This document shows positions 4,172 through 59,408 of a DNA stretch of 64,000 nt, piece after piece; position 1 is the first letter of the stretch, and each line of letters starts with the position of its first letter. The notes under the pieces are model-generated. The model did not search any database and was not told where the DNA came from. It was given only the letters and a program-made list of their open reading frames with translations. Origin of the DNA: Candidatus Pacearchaeota archaeon (lineage in GTDB: Archaea; Nanobdellota; Nanobdellia; Pacearchaeales; GW2011-AR1); contig JAAOYK010000056.1 in the NCBI GenBank assembly GCA_018221305.1, forward strand, positions 26,863 through 90,862. The letters are read 5' to 3'. The translations under genes were made by a program, and so were the position numbers.

Positions 4172-4244
4172 GCCCCGATAGTGCAGCGGCCAAGCATCCA
4201 GCCTTCTCAAGGCTGTGACCCGGGTTCGAATCCCGGTCGGGGCA
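4172..4244 (+). tRNA. tRNA-Glu (anticodon CTC)
   Basis: Acceptor GCCCCGA/TCGGGGC, anticodon stem CAGCC/GGCTG with loop TTCTCAA, T-arm CCGGGTTCGAATCCCGG. Only 6 nt after tRNA-Gln, so probably co-transcribed. Confidence 0.8.
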
Positions 4245-4364
4245 CTTTTTATCAAAGATAAAATATAGTAATAATAACAAGCCCATATGTAGAGGCTAAG
4301 AACTATTTCTTAGAGTATAGTACAAAACCTATTTATTTAAAAGATAAAAACAATTTCATCTGAA

Positions 4365-4841
4365 ATGATTGGCTACCCAATATATTTTAAAACAAATCCC
4401 CGAGCTTGGTGGATGTTTCGAAGCAATGATTGTATCCAGAGACCCTCGCGTTCTTCAGAGATATGGATTCCCTGGGATCGCAAGTTTCCGAAACACATAC
4501 AATTATATCCGATGGTAAAAGAAGATGCTATTTACTTTTTAGATAATCATTTCTCAAACATTAATTTTAATTGTTCTTCTTCAAGCATGATTATTGACTC
4601 CATAAAACCAGTTAAGTTCAAGATGAGGGTAGAAAAAAATCTTTCTTTAGAAGAAAAGTGTCGAACTGTGATGCATGAAACAATACACGGATTTTATAGG
4701 GTTCATGGTTCTTTATACGCAGAAGATGAAGATGAAAAAGCAATAGAGACAGAGGCTATTAGATTTTGTAATGCTGAAAGTGTATTTATCCAAGATTATG
4801 TAAACAATCTATTACAAAAAGCTAATTCTTCTCAAGATTAG
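4365..4841 (+). CDS. hypothetical protein with an HExxH zinc-metallopeptidase motif (ImmA/IrrE- or SprT-like)
   Basis: VMHETIHGFY contains HETIH (HExxH), with a downstream E/D-rich region. Sits just after the tRNA pair. Confidence 0.35.
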   Translation: MIGYPIYFKTNPRAWWMFRSNDCIQRPSRSSEIWIPWDRKFPKHIQLYPMVKEDAIYFLDNHFSNINFNCSSSSMIIDSIKPVKFKMRVEKNLSLEEKCRTVMHETIHGFYRVHGSLYAEDEDEKAIETEAIRFCNAESVFIQDYVNNLLQKANSSQD

Positions 4842-4966
4842 AACCAAAATCCATCACTCCCATCTCGACAATCTTTATAAATCAAAGCAGTCACAACACC
4901 CTAGCAAAATGTAGGTATTTTGTCATTACAAAAAATACCCCTGATTATCACATTTTACTGCAGTCT

Positions 4967-4979
4967 TCGGCAGGGGCAT
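4967..4979 (+). repeat. 13-nt GC-rich core tcggcaggggcat, identical to the putative attR at 59396-59408 and to the 3' end of tRNA-Glu(TTC)
   Basis: Exact 13-mer shared with 59396-59408. The flanks also match as aGTCtTCGGCAGGGGCATcTTA versus gGTCaTCGGCAGGGGCATtTTA. 12 of 13 match the tRNA-Glu(TTC) 3' end. Confidence 0.55.
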
Positions 4980-19635: not shown

Positions 19636-21278
19636 AAAGCGTTAATCTTAATTTCTATACTTGCTGTTGGCATTTTAATCTTATTATTTTTTAGAACGAT
19701 TGGTTTTATTTCACCGATTATTCCTATGTCTTTATTATCTATAGAAATCTTTCCGCATCTGCCTTCAATAAAGCTTGGATGTGATGTTTCTTTCATTTCA
19801 TACTTTTTGTCTAACATCCGCATTAAGTAGTCTAAAATTTGTTTTAATTCTGTAAAGTTTGCTTTTTCATGACAAAGCGTTATGCATAAGTTTTCGGATT
19901 CTTCAACTCCAGTTTCAGTTTTATTATCTGTAAAAAATATTCTTCCAAGTTCAAAGATTTTTTGTGGGTATGATGCGTCACTATTTTCTGATAATATTTG
20001 TATTGAGTTTGCAAGAAGAGAGTTTCTTAATATATTATTTTCAGTCTTTGAATCAATTACTTCAATAATGTCTGCAGATTTGTAATCTTTGTTAATTTTT
20101 TTGAATTGTTTTTCTTTAGTTGACAAATGATATGTTGATATTTCTTGCAGGCCGAGTCCCGCAAGGATTTGGGCAATTTTTCTTTTTTTAATTGATTCTG
20201 GGTCTTCCTGGCCGATTGTTGAAATTTTTGGAATGATTGGGTCAAACTTATCATAGCCATATGCAATCGCTACTTCTTCTACTAAATCTACTTCATGTAA
20301 AATGTCTGTACGATATGCAGGAATTAATGCTGTTGGTTTGTTTTTTTCTTTAACGTATCCAATACCCATTTTTGCAAGTAAACTTTTTATTTCTTTTTCT
20401 TTAAGATCTAGGCCTAAATTTTTATTAATATATTCAATAGAAAAAGGCATTTTTTCTGGGCTTAACTGAGGCGAAATTTCTTTTGTTTTGTCAATAACCT
20501 CCATTGCATAAATTTTTCCGCCCATGTCTGCTAATGCTGTAACTATCATGTTTAAGGTCTTTTTTAGATATTCTTTATGAAACCCTGAACATTCAATAAA
20601 AATATCTTTTGTCTTTTCATTAATTTTACCAGTCTTATGTGAATTAATGATTGGAGGCATGGATAAGACTTCTCCAGCACCGTCAATAAAAATTGGATAA
20701 ATGTCTGCACCTTCAAGTAGGTGGCCGTATTCTCGTCCTGTCGGATGCTGAGATAAAATCTGGCGCCCGTTAATCTCGCGAGGGAATTCTAGTGGCTGAA
20801 ATCTTATGCTTTCAGGTTTTAATGCTAAGAATTTTATTGGTAGGGTTATTTCTTCTAATGGGTAAACTCCTACTGCTAATTTCTTTCTATTACGGCCATA
20901 GCTTCCGTGAAGCTTTTCCTGAATTTCTACTACTTCTTTAATTTTTTCTTCATCAAATTTTAATCCTTTAATAATTGCGCAAGCAGTAAATGGTCGCACT
21001 TTTTTGACAGAGTTTTCTATTGTTACTTGATAATCTTTCTGGGGTTTTTCAACCTTGTAAGTTTTCAGTCCTGGTTTTTTCAAAAATGCTGTAATTGCTC
21101 GAACAAATCCTTGAAATGAGAGCAGGTCTGGACGATTTGGAAAAACTTCTATACTAACTTCATTGTCTGTGACCTCTTCGATAGGTGTTCCAAACATTGA
21201 GATTTTGTTTTGCAAATCCTCAGTCATTTTTCCGATCTTTGACTCTAATTGTTTTTTGTTTAATGTTAGTATTGTCAT
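19632..21278 (-). CDS. pheT: phenylalanine--tRNA ligase beta subunit (archaeal type)
   Basis: 548 aa. Archaeal PheT domain order (B3/4-like, B5, catalytic-like fold). Adjacent to pheS with a MazG-like gene between them. Confidence 0.8.
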   Translation of the reverse strand: MTILTLNKKQLESKIGKMTEDLQNKISMFGTPIEEVTDNEVSIEVFPNRPDLLSFQGFVRAITAFLKKPGLKTYKVEKPQKDYQVTIENSVKKVRPFTACAIIKGLKFDEEKIKEVVEIQEKLHGSYGRNRKKLAVGVYPLEEITLPIKFLALKPESIRFQPLEFPREINGRQILSQHPTGREYGHLLEGADIYPIFIDGAGEVLSMPPIINSHKTGKINEKTKDIFIECSGFHKEYLKKTLNMIVTALADMGGKIYAMEVIDKTKEISPQLSPEKMPFSIEYINKNLGLDLKEKEIKSLLAKMGIGYVKEKNKPTALIPAYRTDILHEVDLVEEVAIAYGYDKFDPIIPKISTIGQEDPESIKKRKIAQILAGLGLQEISTYHLSTKEKQFKKINKDYKSADIIEVIDSKTENNILRNSLLANSIQILSENSDASYPQKIFELGRIFFTDNKTETGVEESENLCITLCHEKANFTELKQILDYLMRMLDKKYEMKETSHPSFIEGRCGKISIDNKDIGIIGEIKPIVLKNNKIKMPTASIEIKINAF

Positions 21279-50632: not shown

Positions 50633-50869
50633 TTACATTAATTCTCTAATTACTTTGTGTGTTCCTATTAGGATTATAAGTCCAACAAGGGTAGACGCCC
50701 ACAAACTTAAGGCAATATTTTTTGGGAAAACATAAATGTCCCATAATCCCCAAATTCCTCTCCAAAAAGAAATAACTGCAAATCCAATTATAAGTGCATA
50801 AAGTATCTTTTCAGTTTTTTTTAAATCTCTTTTAAGCGAAGGTTTCTCCTTTCTTTTCCTCTTTTTCAT
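50633..50869 (-). CDS. small two-TM membrane protein with a basic N-terminus
   Basis: 78 aa. Confidence 0.3.
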   Translation of the reverse strand: MKKRKRKEKPSLKRDLKKTEKILYALIIGFAVISFWRGIWGLWDIYVFPKNIALSLWASTLVGLIILIGTHKVIRELM

Positions 50870-51550: not shown

Positions 51551-51581
51551 GAGTATTAGTTTCTTTTAAACAAACTAATCT

Positions 51582-51654
51582 GCCCCTGTAGTGCAGCGGC
51601 CAAGCATCCGGCCCTTTCGAGGCCGTGACCCGGGTTCGAATCCCGGCAGGGGCA
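51582..51654 (+). tRNA. tRNA-Glu (anticodon TTC); putative integration target (attL)
   Basis: Acceptor GCCCCTG/CAGGGGC, anticodon stem CGGCC/GGCCG with loop CTTTCGA, T-arm CCGGGTTCGAATCCCGG. Its 3' end cggcaggggcat is repeated at 59397-59408. Confidence 0.8.
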
Positions 51655-51731
51655 TGTCTATATTATGATTAAAAAGTGGGACTCGGAATTTGTATAGAAA
51701 ATACTAAAAAGTACTAATTCTCTAATAAGCT

Positions 51732-52346
51732 ATGGCTTTTAATTGTGAAGTTTGTAAAGAAGAAATAACCGAAAAAGAAAATAATTATTCTACAAAAAAC
51801 TGCGGAAGACCATTATGCAGGAAACATCAGCATACTAAAAATAACAGCATGTCAAAAAAAGATATGTATTCTAAAGAAAATATGATTAAAGGAAGGATCG
51901 CTGAAACTTTAATCGAAGAACTCTTTCTTTATTTAGGATATAATGTATTCAGATATGGTATGGAAAATACAGTTCCGGGGGTCATGGGCTTATTAAAGGG
52001 AGTAAGAAGCGATGTTGCAGATAATATAAGACGTATGCCAGATTTTGTTATACAAAGCAATAGTGGAGAAAACAAAGGGGAAGTATATTTTATTGAAGTG
52101 AAATTTAGAGCAAGTGAAGAATTTTCAATAAAAAACCTACCAAAAAATTATCCTTTTGAAAATTGCTATTTTATTCTTGTTTCAAAAAAACATATCAAAT
52201 GCATTTCCTACAAAGAACTTCAAGCTGGAAAAGTGATCAGTCCAAAATCTCAAAATTATCTTGGAAGCCGAAAAGAATTTGCATTAGATAAAAAGGTTAT
52301 AATCGAATTTTGTAATTTTGCAGTTAAGTTTTTTGAGAATGTTTAA
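51732..52346 (+). CDS. N-terminal zinc ribbon fused to a PD-(D/E)xK (restriction-endonuclease-fold) nuclease-like domain
   Basis: CEVCKEE...CGRPLC ribbon. Core AETLIEELF...MPDFVIQSNSGENKGEVYFIEVKFR supplies E, PD and E-V-K in canonical order. Confidence 0.45.
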   Translation: MAFNCEVCKEEITEKENNYSTKNCGRPLCRKHQHTKNNSMSKKDMYSKENMIKGRIAETLIEELFLYLGYNVFRYGMENTVPGVMGLLKGVRSDVADNIRRMPDFVIQSNSGENKGEVYFIEVKFRASEEFSIKNLPKNYPFENCYFILVSKKHIKCISYKELQAGKVISPKSQNYLGSRKEFALDKKVIIEFCNFAVKFFENV

Positions 52347-52384
52347 AAATTCATAAGAATTTAGAGGTTTATTAAGAAAAAACA

Positions 52385-53254
52385 CTAGGCAGTAATTAAT
52401 TCTTTTTTAGAGATCATAAAATTTATCTGGGGTTTCGGCTTTACAAATAATTTAGAAGTTTGAGTATCGTATAATTTTTTTGTTCCATATTTTATATGAT
52501 ATTTAATTCCTCTTTTTTTACAAAAATTCTCAACAATCTTTGCACATCTTTCATAAAATTCTTCATTCTTGTTAAATGCACTACTCTTAACATTATAATT
52601 TAATTTACCAAAGATTATATTATTAACAAAAGAGATCTCATTCAGTAATTTGATTAATGCTTGAAATGGATTTTTTTCTTTACTAATGTTTGGAGTAGGA
52701 TAAGGTTCCATACTAACCCAAGTTTTTAGTCCGGCTTTATGTAATCTTTTTAGAGATTTAATTCTTCCACGATAAGGGGCACTATTTGGTTCAAACCGAT
52801 TTTTAAATTCTTTATTTAAAGATACTAAGGTAATCCCATATTCATTATTCCTACTATATTTTTTAATATCCTTTAGATTTGTAGGATATATTCCTTTGGT
52901 TAAAACAGTACATTTAATCCCATTAACATTTAATTTATTAATTATTTTCAAAGTCATATCAGTAACTTCAGGATATTTATACATAAATGGATCTGTAGTA
53001 AAACACAAATGAACAAATTTTATTTCATCCTTATATTTTGGAATTTCTTTATCTAAAAGTTCTAATGCATTTTTAACAAGTTTTGGTTGTTTCCACCCTT
53101 CAAAAGATTTAACTTTTCCAAATCTTCTTGCCATATTATATGCATAACAAGGGAATGTGCATCCATGAGAACAACCTTCAACATGATTTATACAAAAGTC
53201 TGCATACTCAACCTTACTCTTATACAATAAGCTCTTTCTAGTAACTTTCTTCAT
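52385..53254 (-). CDS. three-Cys-motif radical-SAM-like / phage Gp37-Gp68 (DUF5131)-like protein, the expected partner of TcmP
   Basis: N-terminal YADFCINHVEGCSHGCTFPCYAYNMA has a clustered Cys motif ending in CYA, as in Gp37/Gp68 and SplB-type proteins. 289 aa. Abuts the tcmP-like gene on the same strand. Confidence 0.4.
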   Translation of the reverse strand: MKKVTRKSLLYKSKVEYADFCINHVEGCSHGCTFPCYAYNMARRFGKVKSFEGWKQPKLVKNALELLDKEIPKYKDEIKFVHLCFTTDPFMYKYPEVTDMTLKIINKLNVNGIKCTVLTKGIYPTNLKDIKKYSRNNEYGITLVSLNKEFKNRFEPNSAPYRGRIKSLKRLHKAGLKTWVSMEPYPTPNISKEKNPFQALIKLLNEISFVNNIIFGKLNYNVKSSAFNKNEEFYERCAKIVENFCKKRGIKYHIKYGTKKLYDTQTSKLFVKPKPQINFMISKKELITA

Positions 53255-53293
53255 TTTTCACCTTTTTATATGAATATAATGGAAGCCTCATTT

Positions 53294-54418
53294 TTATATG
53301 TTGTTATTTAAATTGTTAAAATCGATAATTGTTTTTCCCGGAGGAAATACGCCCCTTCTATTCTGCCCATTTCTCTCAACAGAAATCTTTTTATCTTCTT
53401 CCATTTCAGTAAGAACAACCCTAGCATGTTTATCTAAAAAAGATGTTTTAACAAGTACGTAGTCGAATACTTCTTCAACATCTACTTTCTTAAATTTAAA
53501 TTCTTCAACAATTTCTTTTTGCAACCGATTATAATCCGGTTCATTAGAGAATAAAACTGATTGATTGGGATTGTAGGTAAAATCCGAAAAAGTAAATTCT
53601 CCACTATCATCTACAGACCACATAGCTTCCTTCATTTTTTTTAATCCCAATTTATTCTTTGTGACAAAAAAAAGAACATAATCTTTCTTATTGAATTTAT
53701 TAACCATATCAAATGTTCTAATATAACATTCCCCTTCGCAAGAATTACGTAATTGTTTTTCGTATAAAGATACTAAAAATAAATATCTTTCTTTCGGTGT
53801 TTTATAATTATGAACTTCTTTCCATTTAGATTCTTCTCCAAATAAAGCGCATACATTTTTTTTATTTTGAGGAAGAGAAATAAATCGAATTAATTCCTCG
53901 TACATAAAGTTAATGAGTACTTCACAAGACTTTTTATTCATCATACGACTAATAGTATTCAAGGATAATCCTTTAATACCAAAAGGATCTATGAAGCAAA
54001 AAGTAGGAGCTATATTCTTATTATCTTTCTCTAATTCATTAAGAATATTATTAACCACTGTTTCAAATTCTGCATTGATTGTTTTTATCTTAAGATTTTC
54101 TTTAGAATAGCTTTTTAATTTTTCATTTAAATATTCTATTACTTTCTTTTCCTTATCTACAAAAATAAAACTTACTTCCTTTATTCTTTCTTTTAGTGAA
54201 TGTTCTAAATAACAATCAATTGCTATTATTGGTGAACCTTTAACTTTTTCACCTTTTTTAGTAAGATATTCTCCAGGTCCAGCAAAACCATCAAGATAAA
54301 TTATCCTCTTATTAGTTGAAGATAAAATAGCCATCCAAGGTTGAAGATACTTTCGAAGAATTTCATGTTTAGCAGAAGTATGGGGGTCAATTAGCCAAGG
54401 AATTTTTTTGATTTCCAT
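53294..54418 (-). CDS. tcmP: three-Cys-motif partner protein (TcmP)-like protein
   Basis: N-terminus WLIDPHTSAKHEILRKYLQPWMAIL and IIYLDGFAGPGEY (SAM/nucleotide-binding-like DxFxGxG) fit my recollection of the TcmP family. Size (374 aa) and adjacency to a three-Cys protein match the described pairing. Confidence 0.45.
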   Translation of the reverse strand: MEIKKIPWLIDPHTSAKHEILRKYLQPWMAILSSTNKRIIYLDGFAGPGEYLTKKGEKVKGSPIIAIDCYLEHSLKERIKEVSFIFVDKEKKVIEYLNEKLKSYSKENLKIKTINAEFETVVNNILNELEKDNKNIAPTFCFIDPFGIKGLSLNTISRMMNKKSCEVLINFMYEELIRFISLPQNKKNVCALFGEESKWKEVHNYKTPKERYLFLVSLYEKQLRNSCEGECYIRTFDMVNKFNKKDYVLFFVTKNKLGLKKMKEAMWSVDDSGEFTFSDFTYNPNQSVLFSNEPDYNRLQKEIVEEFKFKKVDVEEVFDYVLVKTSFLDKHARVVLTEMEEDKKISVERNGQNRRGVFPPGKTIIDFNNLNNNI

Positions 54419-54621
54419 AAATTTTTAGAACAAATATTCTTTATAAACCCCACTCTAAAACAAGGATAAATAATAAGCTATTTTTATCTTTTCCCCCTTA
54501 GCCCCCTTTCCCCCCATAGTATCTATGTATGTTTATACATATATACAGAGCACGATTTAGTGACTCTTTTGAGGCATCCCAACGTCGATGAAACTCCTTT
54601 TACACCCTAAAAATCTGGGTG

Positions 54622-55674
54622 TTAGATTTTCATTAATTTTTTAAGCTTTTTTCGCATATCTCTCCGTTGGGTGCACAATCCAAATTTTGAATATGCTTTA
54701 TATAAATCTCTATTAGAAACTACAATCATCCATCTTCTCCCATACCTATTTTTTAAAAATTCTATTTTATCCTTTAATTGTTTCTTTTTTCTTAATAAAC
54801 TGCCTGTTTCAACCTCTATTGCATATTTTTTAGATCTTATCTTAAATGTTATATCTGCATCTCGAGTATCATGATCTATTATTTTTTCAGTTTCTAAACA
54901 CTCTAATAATAATTGTTTGACATTCCAAACAAGAAAGGTGTGAGTTGCAGAATGATTTAAAATTTGCTTCACCAATACAGGAATTATTTTATTTTCGAGA
55001 ATACAATATTCATTAACTTGAGAAAATCCTTCTTCTTTCAAAACTTCAATCTCTTTTTCAGATAAATCCTCTTTTTTGAAAACTTTTTTATCATGTATAT
55101 CTAAATCTTCTTCTATTTTTTGTTTTATGTCCCTTTGTTTTGCTTCTAGATCTCTTTTTTCTCCTTCTAATTCAGAAACCTTTTTTTCTAATTCATAATT
55201 TTTTTCATAAATCTTTTCTAATTTTTCTTTATTTTTTGTTTTTATAAGAACTGCTTCTGCCTCTTTTACTTTTTTCTTAATTTCATTTTTATAATTCCAA
55301 AACCTAGATTCCAGAAACTTATCAGATCCTAGTTCCTCAATAAAACTCTCTAATTCTTTAGAGGTTAAGTATTCAAGATCTTTGTTAAGATATTTCTCGA
55401 CATATTCTTTATCTTGTTTTATTTTCTTTTTTCTCTCTTCTTTTTGTTTTGCAATCTTAAGGAGATAAACATGTAATTTATAATTAAGATAAATAAGAGT
55501 AATTAGGAAAATACAAATCATAACTAACTGAAAAATTAAGTTATGAATAAGATTGTTTAAACGCCCTGGAATTTTAGGGATTTCTTGTATTATTCCCATA
55601 ATAGCTTCATAGACCACATATCTTAGAAAAAGAAAAAATAAAATTGCAAGGATAACAAATTCATCTTGCTCCAT
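54622..55674 (-). CDS. membrane-anchored long coiled-coil protein with a C-terminal PD-(D/E)xK-like nuclease domain
   Basis: Two N-terminal TM helices and ~150 aa of E/K heptads. C-terminus has HSATHTFLVWN...IIDHDTRDADITFKIRSKKYAIEVETGS, a D...D...E.E arrangement. Confidence 0.35.
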   Translation of the reverse strand: MEQDEFVILAILFFLFLRYVVYEAIMGIIQEIPKIPGRLNNLIHNLIFQLVMICIFLITLIYLNYKLHVYLLKIAKQKEERKKKIKQDKEYVEKYLNKDLEYLTSKELESFIEELGSDKFLESRFWNYKNEIKKKVKEAEAVLIKTKNKEKLEKIYEKNYELEKKVSELEGEKRDLEAKQRDIKQKIEEDLDIHDKKVFKKEDLSEKEIEVLKEEGFSQVNEYCILENKIIPVLVKQILNHSATHTFLVWNVKQLLLECLETEKIIDHDTRDADITFKIRSKKYAIEVETGSLLRKKKQLKDKIEFLKNRYGRRWMIVVSNRDLYKAYSKFGLCTQRRDMRKKLKKLMKI

Positions 55675-55676
55675 CC

Positions 55677-56846
55677 CTACTCCTTCACCATCCTTTCCAT
55701 TTTTAATACATACATACCAATAGTTTTCATTTGGCTTTTTAGGATATCTATTTCATTTTGCATAGAACTAACTTCTTCTTTTAAAATATCATTTTTATTT
55801 TCAGCCTTTACTAATCTCTTCTCAATCTCTGTTTTTGTTAAATCCATTAACATATCTTCCTCACTTATTGTATCACGCATCCCTAACATTTCGCTGTAAT
55901 AATGGATTTTATCTGATTTTTTCCAGCCAAATCTAAATTTTAGGGCAGATTCGGATTTATATCTTAATAACCAATAACAGCAACTGCAGTGCCTAAAATC
56001 ATACATTGTTAAATCTGAATATTTCTGTCCTGCAGGACTTTTCTCATCCCCTAAGATTCTTTTCCCTAATCTCTTCAGATAATTATTAACACTATAAGGA
56101 TTAATAGGAAATAGTTGATCATTTGGTTTTAAGTCCTTAACTTTAACATATTTTTTAATTAAATCAGAGCATAGCATTAACTTAATTTTCCTTCCAAAAG
56201 TTTTAGAAATTTCTTCTTTAATGTTCAATTCTTTAAAATCGTTTGATAGGTCTGAAACTCTTAAATTAACTAATTCGGTAGGACTTCTAATTCCTGTATC
56301 AAATAAAAACATAATTAAAATACTATATTCATATTTTGCTTCATCGCATAATTGCTTAATTTGTTCTTCTGTTAAATAAACCCATTCGGGTTTATCTCCC
56401 GTTGTATCTAAATATTGAGTTATGTCTGGAAGAGTTTGTCCTTCTTTATTCTTAATTTTTTGATACCAGTGCCAAAAAGCTTTATAGATTTTAGCATAAT
56501 CTCTAATGCTCTTGTATCTTTCACCATCCTGCCTTTTAACCTCTCCATTTCTCATGGCAGTAAAAAAAGAACATAGCTCATTTTCGCTTATTTCTGTTAA
56601 ATTTTTATTAAATTTAGTTTTAAAGTGCTTTGCTAAGAAAACCATACGATTTCTTAACGTGTTAAGCCGTGTGTAGCTTCTTGCCCCTTTTTTGTTAGAC
56701 ATAGAGATGTTTATGCCAAGTTCCATATCTTTTAGATATTGAAGAATTATCTCTGAATTTTCTTTAGACAAATCAGGGATTTGTCCCTGTATTAATTTTT
56801 TCCATCTCAAATACTTTTCTTTATTCTTATATGGATCGATCTTCAT
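55677..56846 (-). CDS. tyrosine recombinase / integrase
   Basis: Box I FLFDTGIRSPTELVNLRVSDL (catalytic Arg), box II YDFRHCSCCYWLL (R-H), then KIHYYSEMLG (candidate nucleophilic Tyr). N-terminal SAM-like core-binding region. Sits inside the tRNA-bounded element. Confidence 0.7.
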   Translation of the reverse strand: MKIDPYKNKEKYLRWKKLIQGQIPDLSKENSEIILQYLKDMELGINISMSNKKGARSYTRLNTLRNRMVFLAKHFKTKFNKNLTEISENELCSFFTAMRNGEVKRQDGERYKSIRDYAKIYKAFWHWYQKIKNKEGQTLPDITQYLDTTGDKPEWVYLTEEQIKQLCDEAKYEYSILIMFLFDTGIRSPTELVNLRVSDLSNDFKELNIKEEISKTFGRKIKLMLCSDLIKKYVKVKDLKPNDQLFPINPYSVNNYLKRLGKRILGDEKSPAGQKYSDLTMYDFRHCSCCYWLLRYKSESALKFRFGWKKSDKIHYYSEMLGMRDTISEEDMLMDLTKTEIEKRLVKAENKNDILKEEVSSMQNEIDILKSQMKTIGMYVLKMERMVKE

Positions 56847-56932
56847 CTTATTAGTCGTGTGTGTCTAGATGGAGCTTATTTTTAAATCTTGTCGAGAAGG
56901 AAAGGATGCGATGGGAGTGGTGGAAGAAGGGT

Positions 56933-57904
56933 TTATTTTTTAAGAAAGGGAAGGGTATTAGCTTCTTGTTCTCCTTCAATAAGTAATACATCAAGATTAG
57001 AAAATTCATTCTCTCCAAATAGCTCCTTTAACTTATCTATTTGACTTCTTAATTCAAATTCATTTTTATGAAATAATTGAATAAAACAATTCGGTTTAGA
57101 CATGGTCAAAAAAAGTGAATTAACAAATTGGGAAGATCTCGCAAAATTTTTTATTTTAGCTTGATTTTCTATAGATAAATTATTGAATTCCAAAGAAATT
57201 ATGGAAAAGAAGTATCCCAATCTTTTCATATCGAATAAAATTCTAGAGCCAAGAATAACTTTCTTTTGATACAACTTTTTTAATTTATATAAAACTAGTT
57301 CTGCAGAAAGATTTATTTTTTTAGCTATATCTATTATTTTAATTCTTCCATCTTCTTCTAAAATCCTTAGTATTTCTAATTCTTTTTGATCTAATTTAAT
57401 CTTCTTTGATTTTTCAGTTATTTCAATGCTCTCCTCCTTTTTATTTTTAAGGAATTTAAGGGGATATTTTTCAATAAAAAAAGGCTTTAAAATCAAATAA
57501 TCTAAAATTAAGCCTTTATCCCTGCCTAGAATGAAATTAAGAGAATCTCTAAAATCTTTCTCATCTTTAAAAATAAGATTCAAAAAGAGATCATATTTAT
57601 TAAAAACAGCCCCACTAGAGATACAATGTTTACTTTGCTTGAACTCTTTTTCAAAAGCCTTAATTTTCTCCTTATCTGAAAATTTTAAGAATAAGATAAC
57701 TAAATAATTATAACCTAAAGATTCATAATTAAAAAACGTTGCAAATTTCTTGATTATGCCTTTTTCCAAGTACTTTTTTATTTTATAGTCTACTTGTTCT
57801 CTAGATAATTTCGTTTCCTTAGCTATTTTTGTTAAAGACTCCCGATTATTGTGATACAAATATGAAATGAGTTTTATATCTAACGGTTTAAGAGATTTTT
57901 CCAT
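56933..57904 (-). CDS. tandem Lrp/AsnC-like regulator (paralogue of 35326..36291)
   Basis: Two Lrp-type HTH repeats (LDIKLISYLYHNNRESLTKIAKETKLSREQVDYKIKKYLEKGII and LDQKELEILRILEEDGRIKIIDIAKKINLSAELVLYKLKKLYQKKVI). Confidence 0.5.
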   Translation of the reverse strand: MEKSLKPLDIKLISYLYHNNRESLTKIAKETKLSREQVDYKIKKYLEKGIIKKFATFFNYESLGYNYLVILFLKFSDKEKIKAFEKEFKQSKHCISSGAVFNKYDLFLNLIFKDEKDFRDSLNFILGRDKGLILDYLILKPFFIEKYPLKFLKNKKEESIEITEKSKKIKLDQKELEILRILEEDGRIKIIDIAKKINLSAELVLYKLKKLYQKKVILGSRILFDMKRLGYFFSIISLEFNNLSIENQAKIKNFARSSQFVNSLFLTMSKPNCFIQLFHKNEFELRSQIDKLKELFGENEFSNLDVLLIEGEQEANTLPFLKK

Positions 57905-58026
57905 ATTTTTAATGTATATTTTTAGTATATAAAATTATCTATTAAATAAAGATTAAACTAAATTTATTTCTTTTATTCGTATTTTACCTAAGAATACTTT
58001 AAATATCTTTTAAATATAAGTCAATT

Positions 58027-58986
58027 ATGGCAAAAACTACATTAGTGGGACAAGTTGAATCGCAATTTGAACCTATCTCTAATCAGATCACGGAAACCGG
58101 AAGTTTGGCTAAATATGTTTCTGATTCTCTTATGGATAAAACACCTAGGATTTCTCCAGAGTTGTTTGGTCTATCAAGAAAAGCTAACCTTAATTTAACC
58201 CCTGAACAAGAAGGTCATATATGCAATGAATATCTTGGACATTATAGCCCCGCATTTACATACAGAATTAGCAGGGAAGATTTCAAATATGCCTTTTTAG
58301 ATTCAACAAAAATAAGTGTTGATGCAAAGATCCCTTACTTTGCTTATGCTATTCTACCAGATAATAAAGAAGTCATTTTCTCTAAATCTGCAATAATTAC
58401 TGCTTTAGATAAATTTGATATTTCAACAAGTAATAGGGATCATCCTTTCAAAGAGTATACCGATCTTGTCATAAGTCATAACAATCATTCTTCATCCTTT
58501 TCTGGATTAATCGAGGATAAAGATATAGATGGGAAAAACCTGAAGAAATATTCCTTCCCTTCAAAATCTTACGGAAATGTTAGCCTAGATGTTAATGCAA
58601 AATGGACAGCTCCATTCAAATTAGATGTCTTGACTAAAGTCCCAGAGATTCCAGAATCTTTTATAGCCCTTGGAGATGAAGCTATATCTGCCTACTATAC
58701 TGCCCTAAAAAACGCACCAAAAAAGTTAAGGCAAAAAACTTCTCTAATTTCCCCAAGAATAGGTGTATTGTGGGTTCCTAGCAACGCATCTTTATGTTGT
58801 GTCGGAAAAATTCCAAAGGCTAAATCACCCCCAAGAATAAAAGGAGATCCAATCCTAGTTTTAGACATACCTGACAAAGATAAAAGTCATAAACATGCTA
58901 TTGCCGCATGGAATATAGATGAAGAACTCCCATTTAAATATTGGATCACAGAATTTAGTGAAGGAGCACTGGGAAATATAAAATGA
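58027..58986 (+). CDS. hypothetical protein (island cargo)
   Basis: 319 aa, no motif recognised. Its stop overlaps the next ORF (ATGA). Confidence 0.35.
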   Translation: MAKTTLVGQVESQFEPISNQITETGSLAKYVSDSLMDKTPRISPELFGLSRKANLNLTPEQEGHICNEYLGHYSPAFTYRISREDFKYAFLDSTKISVDAKIPYFAYAILPDNKEVIFSKSAIITALDKFDISTSNRDHPFKEYTDLVISHNNHSSSFSGLIEDKDIDGKNLKKYSFPSKSYGNVSLDVNAKWTAPFKLDVLTKVPEIPESFIALGDEAISAYYTALKNAPKKLRQKTSLISPRIGVLWVPSNASLCCVGKIPKAKSPPRIKGDPILVLDIPDKDKSHKHAIAAWNIDEELPFKYWITEFSEGALGNIK

Positions 58987-59348
58987 TTTTTGGCGGTTTT
59001 GGAATTTCTGATTCTGAGGGTAGAAAAAAACTTTGCAAGGATAAAGGCAATCTTTTAAATGCGATAGCAGAACATGTAAAAGAACAGTCTACAAGAAAAA
59101 AACTTTCAGATAAGGATCCCTTTGTTCAGTATCTAATAGAATGCTCTGCAAGAGAAAAACTTTTGTTTGGAAAAGCATTAAAAGACTATGGAAATTACAT
59201 GGAATATTGTACTGCTAGAATTGAGGCAAGGTTGGTAAGAAATGCCCTTGAAGATTTTGATAAGGGAGATTATCAAAGTTCCAGAATAAAACCTTATCAA
59301 AGGTTTTTGATAGATATTATAGAAGGAAAAGACCCACAAATAAAATAG
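58983..59348 (+). CDS. hypothetical protein (island cargo)
   Basis: 121 aa, translationally coupled to the upstream ORF. Confidence 0.35.
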   Translation: MIFGGFGISDSEGRKKLCKDKGNLLNAIAEHVKEQSTRKKLSDKDPFVQYLIECSAREKLLFGKALKDYGNYMEYCTARIEARLVRNALEDFDKGDYQSSRIKPYQRFLIDIIEGKDPQIK

Positions 59349-59395
59349 CCAAAAAATAGCCCGAGTCCCATCAATTCATCACAACATAGAGGTCA

Positions 59396-59408
59396 TCGGC
59401 AGGGGCAT
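59396..59408 (+). repeat. putative attR: 12-13-nt direct repeat of the tRNA-Glu(TTC) 3' end (tcggcaggggcat)
   Basis: An exact 12-mer cggcaggggcat is shared with 51644-51655. The same 13-mer also occurs at 4967-4979. Confidence 0.55.

Follow-up and report, generated by a model that had tools for sequence, protein, structure and literature searches.

A probable 7.7-kb integrative element at the 3' end of tRNA-Glu in a Pacearchaeota archaeon

DPANN archaea are host-dependent organisms with very small genomes, and little has been charted of their mobile elements and defences. In a 64,000-nucleotide stretch of a Pacearchaeota (DPANN) genome (called the window here), an intact tRNA-Glu(UUC) gene is followed by lower-GC DNA that ends at an exact copy of the tRNA 3' end. 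Is this DNA an integrated mobile element, and what would its genes do? We conclude, with a probability of about 80%, that positions 51656–59396 are a 7.7-kb integrative genetic element that was inserted into the tRNA 3' end by site-specific recombination. By kind, it is an ordinary integrase-driven island; we found no description of the large family to which it belongs. The features of the locus are as follows.

51582..51654, plus strand: tRNA-Glu(UUC), intact, integration target, attL side (ARAGORN; Rfam RF00005, 62.1 bits)
51644..51655, plus strand: attL core CGGCAGGGGCAT, covering the final 11 nt of the tRNA and one further nucleotide (exact repeat)
51656..51688, plus strand: P' arm with GTGGGACTCGG (51676–51686), left inverted-repeat half, probable integrase-binding site (I5; L028 match)
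51732..52346, plus strand: 204-aa protein, CCCH zinc ribbon and Hjc-like PD-(D/E)xK nuclease
52385..53254, minus strand: 289-aa radical-SAM-like enzyme, partner of TcmP, C21...C28-x3-C32-x3-C36 (PF04055)
53294..54418, minus strand: 374-aa TcmP, modelled as an RlmJ-like class I SAM methyltransferase domain with a C-terminal winged helix
54622..55674, minus strand: 350-aa protein, two N-terminal hydrophobic helices, Lys/Glu-rich coiled coil, conserved C-terminal domain at aa 187–332 (sequence reading)
55677..56846, minus strand: 389-aa tyrosine recombinase, the integrase (phrog_1, E 7e-18)
56933..57904, minus strand: 323-aa tandem Lrp/AsnC-type regulator, encoded upstream of the integrase gene in the same orientation (HTH_24 and HTH_AsnC-type, twice each)
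58027..58986, plus strand: 319-aa protein without detectable relatives in the libraries used (Pfam, NCBIfam, PADLOC, PHROGs)
58983..59348, plus strand: 121-aa protein, likewise without detectable relatives; its start and the stop of the preceding 319-aa ORF overlap
59357..59396, plus strand: P arm with CCGAGTCCCAT (59361–59371), right inverted-repeat half (I5; L028 match)
59397..59408, plus strand: attR core CGGCAGGGGCAT, then the T-rich stretch GTGTTTTTT (exact repeat, 12/12 nt)

Borders, composition and integration

ARAGORN called tRNA-Glu(ttc) at 51581–51655, and Rfam placed it at 51582–51654. An earlier reading of the locus (called the sequence-only reading here) had claimed that the 3' end of an intact tRNA gene is duplicated exactly, over 12 nt, at the far border; both copies were confirmed and the tRNA is intact. 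The T-rich stretch that follows the attR core is what we take to be the original tRNA trailer. The window holds three exact copies of the 12-mer compared to 0.02 expected, and none of 100 shuffles reached three; a chance origin of the repeat is thus rejected. The third copy, which the sequence-only reading had missed, lies at 4968–4979.

The DNA bracketed by the 12-mers measures 7,741 bp and encodes an intact tyrosine recombinase. Its GC content is 28.5%, versus 31.9% in the rest of the window. Sliding windows of the same size have a mean GC of 31.6% (sd 1.2), and their minimum starts at 50,800, nearly coincident with the island. The GC3 of the island genes is 0.17–0.26, versus 0.21–0.30 for flanking genes. 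The compositional shift that had been noted from the letters is real but modest. All eight ORFs named at that stage are present at the coordinates listed above.

Directly inside the direct repeats lies an imperfect inverted repeat (I5; 51657–51686 and 59361–59390). Its core is the GTGGGACTCGG at 51676–51686, and the complement of this core is at 59361–59371. We propose that the tyrosine recombinase of the element (55677–56846) recombines an attP made of the P arm, the core and the P' arm with the tRNA gene. Because the final 11 nt of the tRNA are also present on the element, the gene would stay intact and the core would be duplicated at the far end. The inverted GGGACTCGG motifs, approximately 25 nt inside each core, are putative integrase-binding sites. 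Strand exchange probably takes place within GGGGCA(T). At the related locus L001, the distal copy and the tRNA copy differ only at 2 nt, 5' of GGGGCAT, which would place the crossover inside this motif. The comparisons revealed neither a true empty site nor a circular attP junction; among available genomes, the closest are only approximately 70% identical in a housekeeping protein. An exact search of the JGI metagenomes with the P' arm returned no matches.

The integrase family and the element backbone

The integrase matched the XerA model with an E value of 6e-12, below the cut-off, and had no match in Pfam at E 0.01. PF00589 is recorded for many of its homologues, and NCBI lists an identical protein under the name 'phage integrase family protein'. 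The catalytic set of tyrosine recombinases, R-K-(H)-R-(H/W)-Y, is present: R187, K215, R285, W308 and Y316/Y317 are invariant across 31 integrase sequences. There are at least 2,209 homologues of this integrase, and at least 447 metagenome homologues adjoin tRNA-Glu, tRNA-Asp or tRNA-Gly genes. Among 80 metagenome loci, the integrase gene lies directly 3' of tRNA-Glu in nine, of tRNA-Asp in nine and of tRNA-Gly in six. Elements with both ends visible measure 4.6–7.7 kb and have 11–19-nt repeats of the tRNA 3' end; in the family survey, such repeats of 14–19 nt delimit elements of 4.75–7.1 kb. An exact look-up of the integrase and one flank protein in an assembly index gave no match. Identity within the integrase family is 61–65%, compared to 49% for HisRS and 67% for TGT. 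The integrase is about as conserved as housekeeping genes, so the locus may have been resident for a long time instead of having moved recently.

The same ends around other cargo were found at the locus L028. Its integrase is 86% identical, and the element is bounded by two copies of CGGCAGGAGCA, 4.56 kb apart. Both sub-terminal arms with their inverted motifs are conserved: 51627–51686 (tRNA 3' end and P' arm) is 90% identical in nucleotides to L028 14336–14395, and 59357–59409 (P arm and attR core) is 92% identical to L028 9796–9848. Its cargo is unrelated to that of the window element, and its flanks are different. At L023, by contrast, it is the block of the 204-aa, radical-SAM-like and TcmP genes that is shared (84% nucleotide identity over 2,765 bp), and the homology ends at the P' arm. 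A 371-aa gene of L023 was considered as an integrase relative and rejected. Further loci show tRNA-Glu with an 11-nt repeat 4.6 kb away and an integrase 65% identical (L030), or three copies of the tRNA-Glu 3' 12-mer with a distant integrase and a Rep-like (HUH) gene (L002). Homologous stretches of 11–13 nt are repeated in L001, L002, L023, L028, L030 and L033; in L032, a second att copy was not found. The tRNA, the repeat and the element-encoded recombinase support the proposal of a tyrosine-integrase element in the tRNA-Glu 3' end. Movement between genomes, also proposed earlier, is supported by the integrase and arms shared with L028 around different cargo and by the cargo block in L023. 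These comparisons indicate that the locus is a real mobile element.

A domain homologous to the C-terminal region of the 350-aa protein is encoded right after the integrase in 28 of the 80 loci, and also in L028 and L033. This domain family has an invariant D88 and E101-x-E103, and nine of 20 members match CoiA_nuc weakly (best E 3e-4, below threshold). The protein had been described as a membrane coiled-coil protein with a second nuclease-like domain. The helices and the coiled coil can be read in its sequence, and the CoiA_nuc matches indicate a nuclease only weakly. We do not claim a relationship of this domain to the 204-aa family: a profile–profile comparison aligned their D...ExK/E motifs, with a probability of 1.9%. 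The regulator matched HTH_AsnC-type (50.9 bits, above threshold) and HTH_24 (55.5 bits) in two stretches each, in agreement with the tandem-Lrp assignment, and a distant homologue of it adjoins the integrase in L098. The backbone would thus consist of the integrase and a downstream protein with a conserved CoiA-like C-terminal domain, possibly a nuclease, probably under the control of the tandem Lrp regulator. Everything outside this backbone would be cargo.

Cargo genes

The main cargo is probably a two-gene unit. TcmP matched TIGR04474 over its full length (212.1 bits, cut-off 53) and also the PADLOC model PDC-M30A (E 3.5e-61, full length). Its N-terminal domain has a Rossmann methyltransferase fold, with the glycine loop of motif I and a (D/N)PP(Y/F)-like element as motif IV. 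The protein is modelled as an RlmJ-like fold of the SAM-dependent amino-methyltransferase kind, with a winged helix as putative DNA-binding domain. The gene of the partner lies 39 nt downstream of TcmP on the same strand. The partner passed the general model PF04055 (E 6e-13, 49.6 bits, gathering cut-off 29.5). It matched DUF5131 (Gp37/Gp68, PF07505) with 23.4 bits, under the cut-off of 28.9 and only over positions 1–112 of 243, and PDC-M30B (E 1.9e-5) only over the N-terminal 110 of 241 positions. The TcmP and radical-SAM families that had been suggested from the letters were thus recovered above their cut-offs, and Gp37_Gp68/DUF5131 was not. The partner also matched phrog_13321 (E 8e-25) and, weakly, the Rv2578c, PA0069 and mobile-pair-B radical-SAM families. 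Its cysteines C28-x3-C32-x3-C36 are conserved in L023 and L085, and a fourth conserved Cys lies upstream. We call the protein radical-SAM-like as its motif is CX3CX3C instead of the canonical CX3CX2C. It may be an enzyme of the [4Fe-4S]/SAM type, akin to the spore-photoproduct-lyase/Rv2578c group.

The pair recurs on mobile DNA. In L085, a second element at tRNA-Asp, a radical-SAM-like protein (66% identity) and TcmP adjoin the integrase. TcmP with a three-Cys or radical-SAM protein also occurs in Gordonia phages and on bacterial and haloarchaeal plasmids; TcmP with DUF5131 or a radical-SAM protein was found in a Gordonia prophage immunity region, on a Halopiger plasmid and on defence-island-like contigs. 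This pairing is already catalogued, as an NCBIfam family and as the PADLOC candidate PDC-M30, a system suspected of virus defence. Our literature searches on TcmP, DUF5131, PDC-M30 and the family accessions returned listings and no functional study. The two proteins may act jointly on DNA and install or process a base modification for defence or self-marking.

The 204-aa protein has the nuclease fold and the catalytic acidic/lysine signature E...D...ExK of Hjc and other PD-(D/E)xK nucleases. Its family counts approximately 1,900 homologues across DPANN (62–92% identity), usually without TcmP. A gene of such a conserved, DPANN-wide family inside the borders is odd for cargo. Genes for 188-aa and 197-aa proteins downstream of TcmP in L025 and L026 were considered as homologues and rejected. 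The sequence-only reading had named a zinc-ribbon PD-(D/E)xK nuclease among the genes of the island; its fold is Hjc-like, and its family is not specific to TcmP. PDB sequence and profile searches with TcmP, its partner, the 204-aa protein and the 350-aa C-terminal domain gave noise only. The 319-aa and 121-aa proteins had been listed as two unknowns and are still without relatives: both are without matches in Pfam, NCBIfam, PADLOC, PHROGs and the fetched loci, and the 319-aa protein also in 50,697 INPHARED phage genomes. That the cargo forms one undescribed DNA-modification or defence module does not hold, as the pair is already in NCBIfam and PDC-M30, the nuclease family is usually found without TcmP, and the 350-aa C-terminal domain follows the integrase.

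Alternative readings and known systems

The 12-mers could instead be recombination sites of integron-like or cis-mobilisable cassettes. A resident, vertically inherited integrase beside tRNA-Glu would capture and shuffle integrase-less cassettes that have mimics of the tRNA 3' end at their borders, and the locus in the window would be a one-cassette array instead of a self-contained element. This would fit the same-strand 12-mer copies in L033 (six) and L023 (five), with no tRNA in 20 kb, the integrase-less segments of 0.75–1.9 kb with their own matched inverted repeats adjoining the cores, and the conservation of the integrase, which is close to that of core genes. In the window, a 734-bp segment with one gene follows tRNA-Glu(CTC) and ends at the copy at 4968. 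However, the elements of the window and L028 share both arms and the integrase as a single unit. Several different tRNAs serve as targets of the integrase family, and one contig has two copies, which is mobile-element behaviour. Segment genes point both ways, and the integron-integrase model TIGR02249 scored 24.8 bits against a cut-off of 265. Tandem accretion and decay account for the arrays equally well: beside TcmP, L023 retains a fragment of the integrase-partner gene. We consider this reading quite unlikely. A wider proposal, rather unlikely in our judgement, is that a DPANN-wide gene-cassette system uses the 11–12-nt mimic of the tRNA-Glu 3' end as its recombination site. Conserved integrases would mobilise in trans integrase-less, arm-matched mini-cassettes of one to few genes (for example toxin–antitoxin, methyltransferase, TcmP/radical-SAM or even metabolic genes), stacked in arrays that may also lie away from any tRNA. 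If true, symbiotic archaea with reduced genomes would have an integron-like way to exchange accessory genes.

The locus is very unlikely to be an integrated small archaeal virus or plasmid in which the 319-aa, 121-aa and 350-aa membrane proteins serve divergent virion, replication or transfer functions. Three of the eight element proteins are without a family match, among the relatives L002 has a Rep-like HUH protein and L085 a T4SS-pilin-like gene, and the radical-SAM-like protein matches a PHROG family. But no replication, conjugation or virion genes (capsid, portal, terminase, Rep) were recognisable in the window copy with Pfam, NCBIfam, PADLOC and PHROGs, and the same libraries gave no restriction-modification, CRISPR, toxin or capsid hallmarks, as had been stated before. 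The integrase and the 204-aa protein have no relatives in IMG/VR, the 319-aa protein has none in the phage genomes, and close relatives differ completely in cargo. Highly improbable, finally, is a three-gene restriction-modification-like system in which TcmP and its partner mark host DNA and the 204-aa nuclease cuts unmarked DNA. The three genes adjoin each other and form a conserved 2.77-kb block in the window and L023, and the nuclease fold is supported. Yet this reading is largely refuted by the distribution of the nuclease family, whose members sit in housekeeping contexts without TcmP; the nuclease is absent from all 80 integrase loci, the second TcmP/radical-SAM element included. TcmP homologues (58–60% identity) have unrelated neighbours instead, and the 204-aa gene is convergent with the pair and not co-transcribed.

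Read as an integrative element, the locus is cleanly delimited, with a core, arms, an integrase and a partner gene. DPANN lineages hold many hundreds of such small elements that target tRNA genes, and these can thus be easily annotated and used as markers of gene flow. The TcmP/radical-SAM pair is placed in archaea as recurrent element cargo, and the predicted RlmJ-like methyltransferase fold offers a concrete biochemical hypothesis. Current ideas are not overturned by these findings.

Integrase elements that target tRNA genes are known as P4-type islands in bacteria and as pNOB8/SSV-type and Thermococcales integrated elements in archaea. Like them, the element is inserted in the 3' end of a tRNA gene, restores the tRNA through a short direct repeat and encodes its own tyrosine recombinase; variable cargo and the formation of tandem arrays are further shared traits. 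It differs in its integrase, which belongs to a distinct, highly conserved DPANN family of 385–395 aa and is under the Pfam and NCBIfam cut-offs, in the very small size of the elements (4.6–7.7 kb) and in the recurrent downstream partner with a CoiA-like domain. Literature searches found no published description of this family or of DPANN or Pacearchaeota integrases. Streptococcal ICEs provide known examples of cis-mobilisable elements and of tandem accretion at att sites. As in these and in integron arrays, same-strand att copies bracket integrase-less, arm-matched segments (L023, L033 and window 4246–4979). Unlike in integron arrays, the sites here come from the 3' end of a tRNA gene and have no attC-type structure, gene orientation is mixed, and the integrase is not of the integron type. 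The predicted 204-aa nuclease shares the fold and signature of archaeal Hjc and other PD-(D/E)xK nucleases, with only 14–20% identity and no Pfam match; it differs by its N-terminal CCCH zinc ribbon and a C-terminal extension. The cargo pair appears to correspond to PDC-M30/TIGR04474 in the full-length TcmP match, the adjoining three-Cys radical-SAM-like protein and the location on mobile DNA, as in the Gordonia prophage and plasmids. Here, the host is an archaeon, and the partner is not DUF5131 but a different protein that passes the general Radical_SAM model.

Borders and composition of the island

The tRNA-Glu(ttc) gene was called by ARAGORN at 51581-51655, and Rfam places it at 51582-51654 with 62 bits. 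The last 11 nt of this tRNA plus one base form the 12-mer CGGCAGGGGCAT, and an exact second copy is found at 59397-59408. A third exact copy at 4968-4979 had been missed by the sequence-only reading. Three copies are thus observed in the window against 0.02 expected. The island proposed in that reading, bounded by tRNA-Glu and its repeated 3′ end, is confirmed. The first two copies are 7,741 bp apart, and this span has a GC content of 28.5% compared with 31.9% elsewhere in the window. Among stretches of equal length in the window, the one with the lowest GC nearly coincides with it, and GC3 of its genes is also somewhat lower. The compositional shift noted earlier is genuine, but small. Immediately inside both direct repeats is an imperfect inverted repeat (51657-51686 / 59361-59390), the G+C-rich core of which is GTGGGACTCGG and its complement.

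Features of the window and of two comparison elements
Window, both arms (P′, 51656-51688; P, 59357-59396): arm motif GGGACTCGG
Window 4246-4979: mini-segment of 734 bp between tRNA-Glu(CTC) (4172-4245) and the third 12-mer (4968-4979)
L002 731-6149: element at tRNA-Glu(UUC) with a distant integrase and a 256-aa protein with an HUH-like motif (HMHTIIYG)
L085 3071-10213: element at tRNA-Asp with an integrase of the same family; beside the integrase are rSAM (66% identity), TcmP and an N6/N4 DNA methyltransferase

The arm motif also occurs with one mismatch on the minus strand at 20152-20162 (GCGGGACTCGG), remote from every att copy; this is probably chance. The archaeosine tRNA-guanine transglycosylase (TGT) of the host is at most 71% identical to its best matches, all from Pacearchaeota MAGs, and the host is a Pacearchaeota-like DPANN archaeon. 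NCBI lists proteins identical to the integrase and the 204-aa protein under "Candidatus Pacearchaeota archaeon".

Mobility and the integrase family

The integrase encoded in the comparison locus L028 is 86% identical to that of the window, and its element is bordered by two copies of CGGCAGGAGCA, 4.56 kb apart. Nucleotide identity between the two loci is 90% over the tRNA 3′ end and P′ arm, TATATTATGAT(T)AAAAAGTGGGACTCGG, and 92% over the attR core and P arm (CCCGAGTCCCATCAATT.ATCACAA.ATAGAGGTCAT), whereas the intervening genes are unrelated. Conserved integrase and ends with swapped cargo are the signature of a mobile element family, and the comparison with other loci shows that the window island is a mobile element. 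The tRNA-side att copy of L028 (14368-14440) is preceded by no more than some 34 nt resembling a tRNA (T arm and acceptor), and ARAGORN called no tRNA there. Either the tRNA has been copied in part, or the gene, close to the end of the contig, is of an unusual type (split or intron-containing).

A further locus, L030, has an integrase of 65% identity and a tRNA-Glu(UUC), from which an 11-nt repeat is separated by 4.6 kb. The 12-mer of the tRNA-Glu 3′ end occurs three times in L002, which encodes a more distant integrase (26% identity) and an HUH Rep-like gene. The 256-aa product is possibly a rolling-circle Rep; if so, the L002 element would be a plasmid that integrated through the same 12-nt core. 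In L001, the distal copy CGGCAGGGGCAT and the tRNA copy CGGTGGGGGCAT show two differences, both 5′ of GGGGCAT. If the left part of attR is element-derived, these mismatches would place strand exchange inside GGGGCA(T).

More than 2,209 proteins make up the integrase family, and the 120 best matches share 60-69% identity with the window integrase. The catalytic residues R187, K215, R285, W308 and Y316/317 are invariant. We surveyed 80 metagenome loci with the integrase. It lies directly 3′ of tRNA-Glu(UUC) in 9/80, of tRNA-Asp in 9/80 and of tRNA-Gly in 6/80, with single cases of tRNA-Ser or tRNA-Gln. Elements of 4.75, 6.5, 7.1 and 7.1 kb are bounded by 14-19-nt repeats of the tRNA 3′ end, and one 534-kb contig carries two integrase copies. 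Conservation of the integrase (61-65%) is comparable to that of housekeeping proteins (49% for histidyl-tRNA synthetase (HisRS), 67% for TGT), suggesting that the elements may be old residents of the lineage. In L090 (9606-10000), three copies of a 19-nt repeat of the tRNA-Glu 3′ end (TCGGACGGGGCGTTGACCT), spaced 81 nt apart, separate the tRNA from the integrase.

Arrays, mini-segments and the 204-aa protein

Same-strand copies of CGGCAGGGGCAT form arrays in two loci, with five copies in L023 (4014-18415) and six in L033 (9144-19866); no tRNA was found within the 20 kb examined of either. Several segments of 0.75-1.9 kb that lack an integrase carry matched inverted repeats of their own beside the cores, as at L033 9155-9908 (TTCCATGCCC / GGGCATGGAA). 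The array segments hold MazE/ParE, methyltransferases, an epimerase and an adenylosuccinate-lyase-like gene. The mini-segment of the window has a single ORF (4365-4841) for a 158-aa HExxH protein with a weak match to Peptidase_M78/IrrE (E 0.003). The 120 nt before its 12-mer at 4968 share 77.5% identity with L023 4652-4771 and also resemble L002 7700-7772, and the segment looks like an integrase-less mini-element or remnant.

The window and L023 share a block comprising the 204-aa gene, rSAM and TcmP, with 84% nucleotide identity over 2,765 bp, and the homology ends at the arm. A fragment of the integrase-partner gene is retained beside TcmP in L023. Together, the block and the fragment suggest that L023 is related to the window element and has decayed. 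The arrays are accounted for by tandem accretion and subsequent decay; that their integrase-less segments are instead cassettes mobilised in trans is an unlikely account. The 204-aa gene directly follows the P′ arm in the window, L023 and L033, in att-bounded segments with three different arm types.

The Hjc-like nuclease family of the 204-aa protein was noted in the window (51732-52346), L023, L033 and L036, and no Pfam or NCBIfam model covers it. Approximately 1,900 homologues at 62-92% identity are spread over Pacearchaeota, Woesearchaeota, Nanoarchaeota and Nanohaloarchaea. A role as a TcmP accessory is ruled out by this DPANN-wide spread, by the plain housekeeping neighbourhoods of some homologues and by its absence from all 80 surveyed integrase loci. 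The family may serve in DNA repair or resolution throughout the lineage.

Cargo genes and comparison with known systems

The 374-aa protein is a clear TcmP, as first called (TIGR04474, 212 bits against a cut-off of 53), and its full-length match to PADLOC PDC-M30A has an E of 3.5e-61. Two motifs, D43-GFAGPG49 and D144-PFG147, are invariant, and the C-terminus is a winged-helix (wHTH) domain. The prediction for TcmP is an active amino-methyltransferase that depends on SAM and has a tail for DNA binding. The 289-aa neighbour, described earlier as radical-SAM-like with three cysteines, passes the Radical_SAM model (49.6 bits). It scores under the DUF5131 cut-off, and its match to PDC-M30B is limited to the N-terminal 110 residues. 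Its cysteines are arranged as CX3CX3C, not CX3CX2C, and are conserved in two homologues.

The partner of TcmP differs between settings. In a Gordonia prophage, within the lysogeny region, it is a true DUF5131 protein, and on a Halopiger plasmid it is a radical-SAM protein. SPL-like radical-SAM partners occur on contigs with adjoining abortive-infection (AIPR) and type I restriction-modification genes. Given these varied partners and settings, the pair is an already catalogued, widespread candidate module; no functional study of it was found in the literature. With the window and L085, the pair recurs as cargo in this element family. The L085 element also carries a T4SS-pilin-like (TrbC/VirB2) gene. 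In Gordonia phage ThankyouJordi (L118, 31674-37741), the TcmP homologue gp42 ('methyltransferase') and the DUF5131 protein gp41 (E 3e-101) lie between the integrase and the immunity repressor. This interval is the usual location of prophage-encoded defence genes.

The 350-aa membrane/coiled-coil protein ends in a domain (aa 187-332) that is encoded just downstream of the integrase in 28/80 loci and is also present in L028 and L033. Residues D88 and E101-x-E103 of this domain are invariant, and 9 of 20 members show weak matches to the CoiA nuclease-like Pfam model (best E 3e-4). The second nuclease-like domain claimed for this protein is thus plausible but not established. The tandem Lrp/AsnC regulator gene is upstream of the integrase on the same strand, and a distant counterpart adjoins the integrase in L098; we infer that it controls the element. 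The 319-aa and 121-aa proteins have no matches in the profile libraries (Pfam, NCBIfam, PADLOC, PHROGs) or the compared loci, and the 319-aa protein has none in phage genomes.

The island and most domain calls of the sequence-only reading stand; its view of the gene set as one undescribed module does not, since the TcmP pair was already catalogued, the 204-aa family is found across DPANN and the 350-aa domain accompanies the integrase. The window element is one of a large family of small DPANN elements, of which we found no description in the literature. It is a tRNA-targeting tyrosine-integrase island, a known kind, and as main cargo it carries a known candidate pair for defence or DNA modification, in which the radical-SAM partner is a variant.
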